Notes: generated by a model from the letters alone, not told the origin. 64,000 bases of DNA from Candidatus Hadarchaeum sp. (GCA_020725055.1 DYFS01000001.1:275-64274), one strand, 5' to 3'; shown: positions 8,495 to 44,906, counted from the stretch's first letter. Numbers and translations are program-made.

Positions 8495-8587
8495 TGGTGG
8501 GCCCGGAGGGATTTGAACCCTCGACCTCCCGGTGTCTGCCAACTAGGCTATCAGCCGAGCGCGCTAGCCAAGCTGCGCCACGGGCCC
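8495..8587 (-). tRNA. tRNA-Ile (GAU) with 15-nt canonical intron (37/38), CCA encoded
   Basis: GGGCCCG TG GCGC AGCTTGGCTA GCGC G CUCGG CUGAUA [GCCTAGTTGGCAGAC] A CCGGG AGGUC GAGGG UUCAAAU CCCUC CGGGCCC A CCA. 93 nt. Confidence 0.7.
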
Positions 8588-11705: not shown

Positions 11706-11793
11706 TGGTGGACCGGGCGGGATTTGAACCCGCGCCCTCTCGCTGTTTCGGTTGCCATGCGAAGCGAGTGCGCTGCCGCTGCGCTACCGGCCC
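11706..11793 (-). tRNA. tRNA-Ala (CGC) with 13-nt canonical intron, CCA encoded
   Basis: GGGCCGG UA GCGC AGCGGCA GCGC A CUCGC UUCGCA [TGGCAACCGAAAC] A GCGAG AGGGC GCGGG UUCAAAU CCCGC CCGGUCC A CCA. G3:U70 Ala identity pair present. Confidence 0.7.
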
Positions 11794-30214: not shown

Positions 30215-33270
<3,056 letters not shown>

Positions 33271-33374
33271 ATCTCTGAACCCAGCTTGCGCTAGGACAGA
33301 CCTATGCATGGCAATCATCTTGCGATGACCGCAATATCGCCCTTCGCTCGTGAATTTACTCACGAGCTGCACGA

Positions 33375-33449
33375 TGGTGGACCCGCCGGGACTCGAACCC
33401 GGGACCTTCGGCTTGCAAAGCCGACGCTCTACCACTGAGCTACGGGCCC
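33375..33449 (-). tRNA. tRNA-Ala (UGC) in 16S-23S spacer, CCA encoded
   Basis: GGGCCCGUAGCUCAGUGGUAGAGCGUCGGCUUUGCAAGCCGAAGGUCCCGGGUUCGAGUCCCGGCGGGUCCACCA. G3:U70 present. Confidence 0.9.
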
Positions 33450-33478
33450 TCCGAGGGTTCGGTACCCCAAACTTCAAA

Positions 33479-34957
<1,479 letters not shown>

Positions 34958-40576: not shown

Positions 40577-40685
40577 TGGTGCCCCGGGCGGGATTTGAAC
40601 CCGCGTCGCGGCCTTTCTTCGTCTGATACCCGAAAGGGCCGTATGATTTCGGCGCTTGCGCTTGACCGGTCTACACCACCGGGGC
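40577..40685 (-). tRNA. tRNA-Glu (UUC) with two introns: non-canonical in D-loop (about 14-16 nt) and canonical 37/38 (16 nt)
   Basis: GCCCCGG UG GUGUAGACCGG[TCAAGCGCAAGCGCCG]AAAUCAU A CGGCC CUUUCG [GGTATCAGACGAAGAA] A GGCCG CGAC GCGGG UUCAAAU CCCGC CCGGGGC A CCA. Spliced form closely matches canonical archaeal tRNA-Glu. Confidence 0.6.
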
Positions 40686-41191: not shown

Positions 41192-41283
41192 GTGGTGGGC
41201 CCGAAGGGATTTGAACCCTCGACCGTCCGGTTTCCCAGACTTGCCTATGAGCCGGATGCTCTGACCTGGCTGAGCTACGGGCC
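41192..41283 (-). tRNA. tRNA with CAU anticodon (elongator Met, or more likely tRNA-Ile2) with 14-nt canonical intron
   Basis: GGGCCCG UA GCUC AGCCAGGUCA GAGC A UCCGG CUCAUA [GGCAAGTCTGGGAA] A CCGGA CGGUC GAGGG UUCAAAU CCCUU CGGGCCC A CCA. Acceptor and T-arm nearly identical to tRNA-Ile(GAU) at 8495-8587. Confidence 0.65.
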
Positions 41284-41327
41284 CTCACCTAACTATTGTC
41301 AAGAGGAGCTATATTTTTTTCTTTGCT

Positions 41328-42380: not shown

Positions 42381-43385
42381 TCAAAGCAGCTCCACTTCCC
42401 TGCCCTTCCCCATTGCCTTGGCCTTTTTGTACACAACCCAGTCAGTGGCGATGTCTTGAACGGCGAGGCCGGTCGAATCAAAAACCGTTATCTCGTCGCG
42501 CGAGGTGCGGCCCGGCTTCTCCTTCGTAACTATCTCACCGATGTCGGCGTATATGTCGCCGTGGGAGATGGCTCCCTTTGAGAGCGGGACATTTACCTCC
42601 CCGCCGTGTATCGCCTGTTCCACATCGTCGACTACAACTTTCGCGCGCAGCAGGATTTTTGGATCGAGTTCCTGTTTGCCTGGCGCATCGGCACCGATGG
42701 CGTTGATGTGCATGCCTTCGGAAACCCAGTCGTTCATGAGGATTGGTTTTCTGGCCGGAGTAACGGTCACAACCACATCCGCGCCTTCGACAGCTCCCCT
42801 TGCTTTTTTGGCCACCTTTACATCCGCGCCAAGTTTCTCGCTCATCTCCTCGGCGTAATGTTCCGCCTTCTTTGCCAACAGGTCATTGACCCTGACCTCT
42901 TCGATCCTGAGCACCTCGTTCAGGGCGAGCAGCTGGGTCCTAGCCTGAACCCCCGCCCCGAGCATGGCAACAACGCGAGAATCCTTCCGCGCTAGATACT
43001 TCGTCGCAACGGCACCGGCAGCGCCCGTCCTCACGTTGGTTATCCAAGTTCCATCCATGATAGTGAGCGGGGCGCCAGTCTTCGGGTCCAAAAGCAAGAT
43101 GGTTGCCATCACCGTGGGCAGGCCGTGCTCTTTTGGATTCCTGGGGTGAGCGTTGACGATCTTTACCCCCGCCGCACCCATCTCTTCCAGGTAGGCTGGC
43201 ATCACCCTGAAGTCTCCATCATGACCCTTGAAGTAAATGTAAGATTTGGGAGGCATTTGGACCTTGCCGAGCCCCTTTGCGCGGAACGCCTCCTCGACGG
43301 CTTCTATGGCCTCGCGCATCGAGACGAGCCCCTCGACCTCAGTCTTCGAGAGCAGTAGCACCTTCAAATCAACACCATCAATCAC
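42381..43385 (-). CDS. ornithine cyclodeaminase/mu-crystallin family protein (archaeal alanine dehydrogenase type)
   Basis: 334 aa. Rossmann VAMLGAGVQARTQLLAL. OCD_Mu_crystallin family layout. Confidence 0.7.
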   Translation of the reverse strand: MIDGVDLKVLLLSKTEVEGLVSMREAIEAVEEAFRAKGLGKVQMPPKSYIYFKGHDGDFRVMPAYLEEMGAAGVKIVNAHPRNPKEHGLPTVMATILLLDPKTGAPLTIMDGTWITNVRTGAAGAVATKYLARKDSRVVAMLGAGVQARTQLLALNEVLRIEEVRVNDLLAKKAEHYAEEMSEKLGADVKVAKKARGAVEGADVVVTVTPARKPILMNDWVSEGMHINAIGADAPGKQELDPKILLRAKVVVDDVEQAIHGGEVNVPLSKGAISHGDIYADIGEIVTKEKPGRTSRDEITVFDSTGLAVQDIATDWVVYKKAKAMGKGREVELL

Positions 43386-43425
43386 TAGGAAACTGATGCC
43401 TTGAATTTTTCTGTTTTGAAGTTAG

Positions 43426-43621
43426 TGGCGCCGGGGAGAGGAATGCCGACCAACGGACTTGACCCGCTGATTCTCGAACCTCTGACCGCTCGGTCGCTGT
43501 AAGCGAGCATGTCGTTCAGCTTGTTGAGGTTCGCTCTTCATCCATGCCCACGTTTAACAGCCGAGCGCGTTCGGCAGGTTCAGCGTTAGCTGTTACCTAC
43601 TACCTGCTGCGCCACCCCGGC
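43426..43621 (-). tRNA. tRNA-Asn (GUU) with three introns (D-loop about 32 nt, anticodon 37/38 about 60 nt, T-loop about 30 nt)
   Basis: GCCGGGG UG GCGC AGCAGGUA [GTAGGTAACAGCTAACGCTGAACCTGCCGAAC] GCGC U CUCGG CUGUUA [AACGTGGGCATGGATGAAGAGCGAACCTCAACAAGCTGAACGACATGCTCGCTTACAGCG] A CCGAG CGGUC AGAGG UUCGA..[about 30 nt]..AUU CCUCU CCCCGGC G CCA. Exon parts rebuild a canonical tRNA-Asn including G73. Confidence 0.55.
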
Positions 43622-43796
43622 ACCATAGGATAATATCCCAACTGTTTTCATATAAGATATTTCTCCACATGTCTGTATTATTGAATCCTATCTTGTGAAT
43701 CCATTTTTTTTAAATTTTGTACTCTGGCAACTTCCAGCTTCCAGCTCCGCTTTCCAGCCCGTTTATACTGGGTAATAACGTGCAGAAATTACGGAC

Positions 43797-44906
43797 TCAT
43801 TTGAGGCCGATGAACTCCTTGCCCTCGGCCTCCTTGAGCTTCGCTGGCAGGTACTCCTTCACCACATAGGGTAGGCCGTACTTCGCGAAAGCCTGCTGCT
43901 CTGCCTTCTTCCCCAGCTCGAGCATGCGCTTGATCTCGCCCTGCCAGAACTCGGTGTTGTAGCGCGGGTCCTTCTGCAGCTGCTTCAGGCGGGCGATGTC
44001 GAGCTCGCGCAGCTTGTCGGTCGGCAGCTTGTAGTTGATTATGTCGCTCGCGGTGACGCCGATGTACTTCGCGTCTGGCACAGCGAGCTCGTGGTTGATG
44101 TACGCGAGCTTCGCGCTTCCCGAAATTATCACCATGCCTATGTGGAAGCCGAACGGGTCGCCGTCAGCGAAAAGGTAGACTGGCATGCCGAACTCGTCGT
44201 GCACGCGCTTCAGGAAACGCCGGGTCGCGCGGGCAGCCTGTCCCTTGAGCCCCACGACTAGCGCGTCGAACGTCTTCCAAGCGCGCTCTTGGACGAACCT
44301 GTGATACATACCCATTGTCTCGATCGCGATCACGCGTTTGGCCTTGCACTTCAGTAACTCCACATCGTCGATCGTCGGCGGGATGGTGTACCCTCCGCGG
44401 CCGGCCTTCGTCGCGTCTATGACCGCGTTATCCTCCTTAACAACGAGCTCCCCATAGACCGCGGCCCCATCTTCCTCCGGCACAAGACCGAGATCCTCGC
44501 GCTTGACCCCGAACATCGCCTCGAGGTCCTCAAGGACGACGTCGGACTCCCCTTGGTCGCTGAAAGGCCCGGAGTCCCAGCCCTCCGCGGTGTAGTACAT
44601 CTCCCGCAGCGTCGCGAACTTGTTGGTCTCGATGAGCTCCTTGCAGAAATCCGCGACGCATATCGTCTGGGCGATTTTCTTCACTTGCTTGATGTTCGCC
44701 GCAGAGCGAATGCCGTACTTGTTGCCGAGCACGAAGTAGCGGTTCTTCTCGTCGTAGAAGATGTTCGACGTGCTCCGCGAGGGCACCTTCAGCCTAGGCG
44801 GCCGCACCTCCGAGATGTCCTTAATCACCTCGGCGCCGAATGTCATGAGGCTTTTTTCAGCCTTCTTCTGGCGTTTCTTTTCCCCCACCAACTTTGACAC
44901 CTGCAA
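43797..44906 (-). CDS. top6A: DNA topoisomerase VI subunit A (Spo11-like)
   Basis: 369 aa. Winged-helix/5Y-CAP and Toprim regions ([13 protein letters not shown] with DxD-like acidic cluster). Confidence 0.8.

Follow-up and report, generated by a model that had tools for sequence, protein, structure and literature searches.

A tRNA-Asn(GUU) gene very probably split by three introns in a Hadesarchaeon, and the presence and absence of introns amongst its orthologues

The tRNA-Pro(UGG) gene of Pyrobaculum islandicum, a member of the Thermoproteales, contains three introns at positions 25/26, 37/38 and 56/57 (Sugahara et al. 2007/2008, summarised in PMC4090602), and the documented positions of non-canonical introns include 22/23 and 59/60 (PMC4090602). 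Kaneta et al. 2018 linked heavy tRNA gene disruption with the Hadesarchaea, a phylum within the kingdom Methanobacteriati, and surveyed Hadesarchaea archaeon YNP_N21 (see Figure 7 in PMC5829648), with the Hadesarchaeal splicing endonuclease EndA reported as alpha4 with an L3 insert (PMC5829648). A structural study of archaeal splicing endonucleases from 2025 makes no mention of the Hadesarchaea.

Here we describe a minus-strand locus at positions 43426-43621 of a 64-kb stretch of Hadesarchaeal DNA (this whole stretch of 64,000 nucleotides is referred to as the window) which we consider very likely to be a genuine and functional tRNA-Asn(GUU) gene of four exons and three introns, whose transcript would be cleaved by EndA, ligated and aminoacylated. 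This identification is based on the exon and intron anatomy of the locus, a bulge-helix-bulge (BHB) at every junction, exon conservation, synteny, compensatory evolution, and the presence or absence of the inserts amongst relatives. The gene joins an already documented kind, as non-canonical introns at 22/23 and 59/60, three-intron genes and Hadesarchaeal tRNA gene disruption are all known. It resembles the multi-intron tRNA genes of the Thermoproteales, such as the P. islandicum tRNA-Pro gene, in having one canonical plus two non-canonical introns, in the short length of these introns (~15-60 nt) and their BHB or relaxed BHB motifs, and in the gain and loss of introns between close relatives. 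In contrast to those genes, the host is not a crenarchaeon but a Hadesarchaeon, and the Thermoproteales EndA is of the (alpha-beta)2 type with a Crenarchaea-specific loop, whereas an alpha4 enzyme with an L3 insert is reported for the Hadesarchaea (PMC5829648). Unlike what the 'transposition' model for the Thermoproteales proposes, there is no sign here of intron copies shared between sites beyond a short 3' segment which is forced by BHB pairing.

The YNP_N21 survey provides a direct precedent from the same phylum, but it gives proportions for one genome and, in the sections of PMC5829648 used here, describes neither this gene nor the four-site intron series, K-turn-like canonical intron and leader repeat reported below. 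The original prediction had regarded the locus as unusual for a lineage that looked euryarchaeal; the three introns were indeed found, but the argument from an unexpected lineage carries less weight than was claimed for it because the host is a Hadesarchaeon, for which tRNA gene disruption has already been reported (PMC5829648).

The features of the locus and its immediate neighbourhood are as follows.

43600..43621, minus strand: exon 1, tRNA positions 1-22 (acceptor 5' strand GCCGGGG, U8, G9, D-stem 5' strand GCGC, D-loop AGCAGGUA, and G22), conserved in 12 orthologues
43570..43599, minus strand: intron 1, 30 nt, position 22/23, UAGGUAACAGCUAACGCUGAACCUGCCGAA, placed by its BHB fold and by comparison of the site with orthologues
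43555..43569, minus strand: exon 2, positions 23-37 (CGC G CUCGG CUGUUA, with the anticodon GUU and A37)
43495..43554, minus strand: intron 2, 60 nt, canonical position 37/38, with a strict BHB; found in all 15 orthologues found, at 55-62 nt
43473..43494, minus strand: exon 3, positions 38-59 (A38, CCGAG, variable loop CGGUC, T-stem 5' strand AGAGG, and UUCGAG)
43443..43472, minus strand: intron 3, 30 nt, position 59/60, AAUCAGCGGGUCAAGUCCGUUGGUCGGCAU, placed by its BHB fold and by its presence or absence amongst orthologues
43429..43442, minus strand: exon 4, positions 60-73 (U60, T-stem 3' strand CCUCU, acceptor 3' strand CCCCGGC, and the discriminator G73)
43426..43428, minus strand: encoded CCA end, read from the sequence
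43650..43656, minus strand: candidate TATA-like promoter cTTATATg, ~29-35 nt upstream of tRNA position 1, of putative function
42381-43385, minus strand: ornithine cyclodeaminase/mu-crystallin family gene, an ORF flanking the tRNA-Asn gap
43797-44906, minus strand: topoisomerase VI subunit A (Topo VI-A) gene, the ORF on the other flank of the gap, followed by subunit B

The locus sits in the gap of ~410 nt which separates these two minus-strand ORFs (an exact-sequence lookup returned no record for the ornithine cyclodeaminase family protein, probably owing to a different start codon). Read along the minus strand from 43621 it comprises GCCGGGG UG GCGC AGCAGGUAG, 30 nt of intron, CGC G CUCGG CUGUUA, 60 nt of intron, A CCGAG CGGUC AGAGG UUCGAG, 30 nt of intron, and U CCUCU CCCCGGC G CCA, in which exon 1 is parsed as GCCGGGG-UG-GCGC-AGCAGGUA-G before intron 1 begins. 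The exon parts had been listed correctly in the original prediction, except that one C (genomic GCGCUCGG) was assigned both to the 3' strand of the D-stem, GCGC, and to the anticodon stem, CUCGG. Intron 1 is placed at 22/23 because this gives a consistent parse, with G22 supplied by exon 1 and C23-G24-C25-G26 by exon 2; the first insert is 30 nt long and not ~32 nt as proposed, and although it does fall within the D-arm, it lies at the edge between D-loop and D-stem and not inside the D-loop. The other two inserts have the predicted lengths of 60 and 30 nt and the predicted locations, the second at the canonical 37/38 site with a strict BHB at shift 0 (see below), and the third in the T-loop, at 59/60, in the same BHB register.

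Without the three inserts, the locus provides a 73-nt tRNA body plus the encoded CCA, or 76 nt in all. This spliced sequence is called as tRNA-Asn(gtt) by ARAGORN, has a cloverleaf as its minimum free energy (MFE) structure (-38.3 kcal/mol), and matches those orthologues that lack the inserts, which together bear out the prediction of a minus-strand tRNA-Asn(GUU) with three introns. It is a standard class I cloverleaf with G34-U35-U36 in a 7-nt anticodon loop flanked by U33 and A37, the discriminator G73, and the residues U8, A14, G18G19, G53, U54U55C56, the UUCG sequence, A58 and C61; the mature T-loop is UUCGAGU, which the third intron interrupts at 59/60. Of 13 orthologues, 12 encode the CCA end, the exception being L025 with CTT, and TTTATA/TTATAT-type elements are located 30-40 nt upstream in most orthologues. 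We note that all other tRNA genes in the window for which the 3' end was read also encode CCA (…CACCA).

We propose that the TATA-like promoter probably drives the synthesis of a precursor of ~200 nt, in which the last few nucleotides of each insert would pair with exon sequence to form a BHB having two 3-nt bulges and a four-position helix. Each bulge would then be cleaved by EndA behind its second nucleotide, giving six cuts in all, and ligation of the exons by an RNA ligase, which in archaea is of the RtcB type, would yield a 76-nt tRNA with CCA already encoded. No EndA gene was found in the 64-kb window by tblastn with an approximate Methanocaldococcus jannaschii query, the sole hit (E = 0.53) being inside a class I aminoacyl-tRNA synthetase ORF.

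We assessed the junctions using a single register taken from the canonical archaeal intron, in which the central helix (H) pairs four exon nucleotides with four intron nucleotides, each set ending 2 nt short of its splice site (5' and 3', respectively), and the cut sites follow the second nucleotide of each 3-nt bulge. BHB-like structures, as would be expected from the original prediction, are present at all three junctions. That of intron 2 is strict, with H formed by CUGU/ACAG (4/4 pairs), bulges UA|A and CG|A, and an outer helix which is the anticodon stem extended to 7 bp. In intron 1, the pairs G18-C49, G19-C48 and U20-G47 and an A17.G50 mismatch make up H, which lies between bulges AG|U and AA|C, and AGGU/ACCU and CAGC/GCUG form the inner helix. 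Intron 3 has the pairs U55-G, C56-G and G57-C and a U54.C mismatch in H, with AG|A and AU|U as bulges, an inner helix of 10 bp, and the T-stem serving as outer helix. The motifs at 22/23 and 59/60 are classed as relaxed because only 3/4 central-helix pairs are formed, with the mismatch (A.G and U.C, respectively) next to the 3' bulge.

The quality of the observed central and inner helices was matched by shuffled introns in 23, 260 and 180 of 20000 cases for the three junctions (0.1-1.3%), and when the splice sites were slid from -6 to +6, shift 0 was best for both 37/38 and 59/60. All three BHBs are compatible within one precursor at -74.2 kcal/mol compared with an unconstrained MFE of -80.8 kcal/mol, and the T-loop BHB helix is not formed in the unconstrained MFE structure of the whole precursor. 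The three inserts have the BHB geometry and the tRNA-restoring property of archaeal introns spliced by EndA, by which they would be removed enzymatically.

For intron 1 the slide also found a competing strict BHB with 4/4 pairs 2 nt upstream (shift -2), and the same gene could be read with this intron cut at 20/21, giving H as GCAG/CUGC, bulges GU|A and CG|A, and A22 opposite C13 in the product. By eye, L034 permits GCAG/CUGC as well and L025 permits 3/4 of the pairs. We nevertheless judge this register to be unlikely, as G19 and U20 of its first bulge can pair with C44 and A43 to make a continuous 6-bp helix in which the 5' bulge is lost, its inner helix is just 2 bp, and its product has a C13.A22 mismatch and a non-cloverleaf MFE structure at -34.5 kcal/mol versus -38.3 kcal/mol. 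In addition, the RNAfold MFE structure of the precursor takes the 22/23 register rather than that of 20/21, and all orthologues without intron 1 pair G22 with C13, which is contrary to a cut at 20/21.

These orthologues were found by using Topo VI-A as an anchor in a genome collection, which gave 43 loci, nearly all from Hadesarchaea/Hadarchaeota metagenome-assembled genomes, the best match being 86% identical. The same tRNA-Asn gene lies directly downstream of Topo VI-A in 12 of the 43 loci, making 13 Hadesarchaeal genomes with the window, and there is no tRNA-Asn gene at the 31 more distant Hadesarchaeal Topo VI-A loci, where matches to GGCTGTTA are coding sequence. A metagenome scan with a 16-nt intron motif returned mostly chance matches, but at least two further orthologues, L087 and L108, were present among the matches listed; both are metagenome contigs on which the gene again follows Topo VI-A directly. 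The length of intron (nt) at the four sites 8/9, 22/23, 37/38 and 59/60 is given here for each allele.

Window: 0/30/60/30
L034: 0/31/60/30
L001, L002 and L087: 0/0/60/0 (canonical intron only)
L003: 0/0/60/27
L025: 0/28/60/0
L008: 17/0/60/0
L030 and L031: 19/0/59/0
L033: 19/0/55/0
L036: 20/0/62/0
L012 and L017: 17/0/60/24
L108: a 20-nt intron at 8/9 plus the canonical intron

L025 and L034 also have an intron at 22/23, with an inner helix of different sequence, but L001, L002, L003 and others do not. The intron at 59/60 is found in L003, L012, L017 and L034 and is absent from L001, L002, L008, L025 and others, in which the T-loop is an uninterrupted TTCGAGT. Wherever a non-canonical intron is missing, the orthologue reads exactly as the predicted spliced product does (e.g. 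AGGTAG-AGT and TTCGAG-TCCTC). The splice boundaries can be regarded as fixed since two independent lines of evidence, the BHB geometry and the gap-free orthologues, agree. Removal of the introns at the BHB-defined sites yields a 76-nt sequence called as Asn(gtt) by ARAGORN in 13/13 cases (the window plus 12 orthologues).

The one BHB register fits all 28 junctions except that of the L034 canonical intron, where a 4-nt 3' bulge falls outside the strict register; elsewhere H has 4/4 or 3/4 pairs (4/4 for the 59/60 intron in L012 and L017 and also for the 8/9 introns) and the bulges are 3 nt. Inner helices are 2-10 bp in the non-canonical introns and differ in sequence between species (there are few sequences per non-canonical site) and 0-10 bp in the canonical intron, which often lacks a contiguous one, and the outer helices are tRNA stems.

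The failure of standard tRNA finders to call the locus would be expected of a decaying tRNA-Asn pseudogene disrupted by insertions, with a functional intron-free copy elsewhere, and another tRNA-Asn gene may exist in the genome beyond the 64-kb window, within which no second one was found by ARAGORN, Rfam or a T-arm scan. However, the mean identity amongst orthologues is ~94% for the exons compared with 57-72% for the introns, and every variable stem position is compensatory (10-25 as GC/GU, 12-23 as GC/UA, 28-42 as UA/CG, and 49-65 as AU/GC), with the pairs 12-23 (G12 with C23) and 49-65 covarying across introns. The inserts also occur at the same four sites across species and have kept BHB geometry despite sequence divergence, synteny of the gene extends to 13 genomes with no fully intron-free allele amongst the orthologues found, and both the encoded CCA and the TATA-like element are retained. 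The exon conservation and compensatory stem changes exclude a decaying pseudogene for practical purposes, and we hold this explanation to be very improbable.

It is also conceivable that the locus encodes a different structured RNA, such as SRP RNA, RNase P RNA or a standalone box C/D sRNA, with a coincidental likeness to tRNA-Asn. The whole precursor folds only modestly better than shuffled sequences (z = -2.3), and the middle 60 nt resemble a box C/D K-turn hairpin, but searches of 43300-43750 against Rfam gave no hit to any family, SRP RNA and RNase P RNA included, at the gathering threshold or even at E<=10, which removes an alternative raised alongside the original prediction. The unspliced locus also received no call from ARAGORN with the several intron and threshold options tried. 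As a cloverleaf with the Asn anticodon and G73 is recovered in 13 genomes once the variably present segments are removed, we give a coincidental likeness hardly any credence.

A neighbour-joining tree built from Topo VI-A as a single gene, and without support values, places the window with L001 and L002, both of which have the canonical intron only. The window nevertheless has all three introns and the GCGC D-stem in common with L034, which is distant in this tree. The intron sequences of the window and L034 are partly similar, with 73% identity for the 59/60 intron. To explain this conflict between intron occupancy and the tree, either precise intron losses must have recurred or the tRNA gene must have been transferred or converted.

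The resemblance of the canonical intron to a K-turn hairpin involves the following elements.

43503..43551, minus strand: conserved hairpin in intron 2, with its terminal stem formed by 43543-43551 / 43503-43511
43535-43542, minus strand: box C-like RAUGAAGA, invariant or nearly so in the orthologue alignment
43526-43534, minus strand: conserved GCGAACCUC, invariant or nearly so in the alignment
43512-43515, minus strand: box D-like ACGA, invariant or nearly so in the alignment

The hairpin is kept in 12 orthologues with a terminal stem of 7-10 bp, in which 96% of cells are paired and 5/7 pairs show compensatory double changes, a covariation score reached by 0/500 shuffles; no Rfam match was found for it. 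The loop opens with an invariant RAUGAAGA and closes with ACGAC, where AUGAAGA matches 6/7 positions of the box C consensus RUGAUGA and ACGA keeps only the GA of the box D sequence CUGA. By its geometry, this arrangement could adopt a box C/D K-turn layout, with a 3-nt bulge followed by tandem G.A pairs adjoining the stem.

The most conserved segment of the loop, CGARCCUC, is complementary to positions 50-57 of the T-arm of its own tRNA, and the complementarity reaches position 49 in the three genomes having G49. It should be noted that an 8-bp match to the T-arm occurs in 4% of shuffles when limited to Watson-Crick pairs and in 19-36% when G.U is allowed, and is not significant; no better target was found among the rRNAs and tRNAs of the window. 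There is a precedent for a guide in such a location in the box C/D RNA of the euryarchaeal pre-tRNA-Trp intron (Clouet d'Orval et al. 2001, Singh et al. 2004, cited in PMC4090602), which is alike in being a long 37/38 intron with a terminal stem, box C- and D-like elements, and a segment complementary to its own tRNA. It differs in that the boxes are degenerate here (AUGAAGA and ACGA), no C'/D' pair is visible, and the complement of T-arm positions 50-57 has no nucleotide at an upstream distance of 5 nt from a D or D' box; membership of this group is not supported. CGARCCUC starts 2 nt after box C with no D/D'-like box at the required distance, and the segment upstream of ACGA is not conserved.

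We do not class the canonical intron as a box C/D guide because the match is not unusual, no conserved C'/D' boxes were found in the alignment of this intron, and the N+5 rule fits no position. For the same lack of a D' box at the right distance and of a significant match, we rejected as unsupported a role for it as a 2'-O-methylation guide for the T-arm (e.g. Cm56).

The fourth intron site, 8/9, is occupied in relatives by introns of 17-20 nt which use acceptor nucleotides 3-6 to form H as CGGG/CCCG. The alleles concerned are as follows.

L008, 5187-5351: allele with an 8/9 intron
L030, 4963-5128: allele with an 8/9 intron
L031, L033, L036, L012, L017 and L108: further alleles with an 8/9 intron

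The 5' leader contains a second copy of GCCGGGG, located 3 nt before tRNA position 1, in 8/8 alleles with the 8/9 intron and 0/7 of those without it. RNAfold predictions that include the leader pair this copy with the 3' acceptor strand and leave the genuine 5' strand to build the 8/9 BHB. The advantage of this conformer is 7.0, 7.5 and 3.3 kcal/mol in L008, L030 and L033, respectively, and 0.5-0.7 kcal/mol in L036 and L012, whereas without the leader the true acceptor stem prevails and the 8/9 BHB is absent. The co-occurrence and the predicted folds suggest that the leader copy may act as a decoy which makes the acceptor-proximal intron spliceable in these relatives, though this does not concern the allele in the window. 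We also considered whether the tRNA starts at the upstream GCCGGGG copy in the 8/9 alleles, and rejected this because, by eye, no BHB is available at the splice sites that would be needed.

A broader reading would combine the four-site series of intron gain and loss in an alpha4-type EndA lineage with the leader decoy and a K-turn RNP formed on the canonical intron that contacts the T-arm of its own tRNA, and this we put forward only tentatively, as being rather doubtful in its entirety. The allele in the window has the K-turn-like canonical intron and not the leader copy, and we found no description of either device in the literature searched.

Nine tRNA genes were seen in the 64-kb window and introns are present in 6/9 of these. 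Several intron-bearing genes other than tRNA-Asn, together with the rRNA operon, are listed here.

40580-40685, minus strand: tRNA-Glu(UUC) with two introns, found by Rfam (41.8 bits) and missed by ARAGORN
41193-41284, minus strand: tRNA-Met(CAT) with a 14-nt canonical intron, which ARAGORN had labelled tRNA-Gly(tcc)
8495-8587, minus strand: tRNA-Ile(GAT) with a 15-nt canonical intron
11706-11793, minus strand: tRNA with a 16-nt canonical intron
30229-34956, minus strand: archaeal rRNA operon of 16S, tRNA-Ala(TGC) and 23S, which is ordinary

The tRNA-Glu gene has a D-loop intron of 15 nt (AGCGCAAGCGCCGAA, H CGGU/GCCG, 4/4) and a canonical intron of 16 nt (H CUUU/GAAG, 4/4), and after splicing in silico it is called as tRNA-Glu(ttc) by ARAGORN. 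A scan of the window found no further hidden tRNA genes with an intact T-arm, and Rfam reported no 5S rRNA in the window adjoining the rRNA operon. These other intron-bearing tRNA genes support the general picture of Hadesarchaeal tRNA gene disruption.

The tRNA-Asn gene exposes a blind spot in annotation, as ARAGORN and Rfam both fail on the unspliced locus. Routine annotation would miss the gene, and a genome annotated in this way would appear to be without tRNA-Asn, which matters for estimates of genome completeness and for tRNA inventories of uncultured archaea. The locus also provides a concrete case of heavy fragmentation of tRNA genes outside the Crenarchaeota, with a cross-check in 13 genomes, and it fits the published idea that EndA loop insertions, and not subunit architecture, track the proliferation of introns. 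The four-site series within one syntenic gene makes a handy system for following the gain and precise loss of archaeal tRNA introns.
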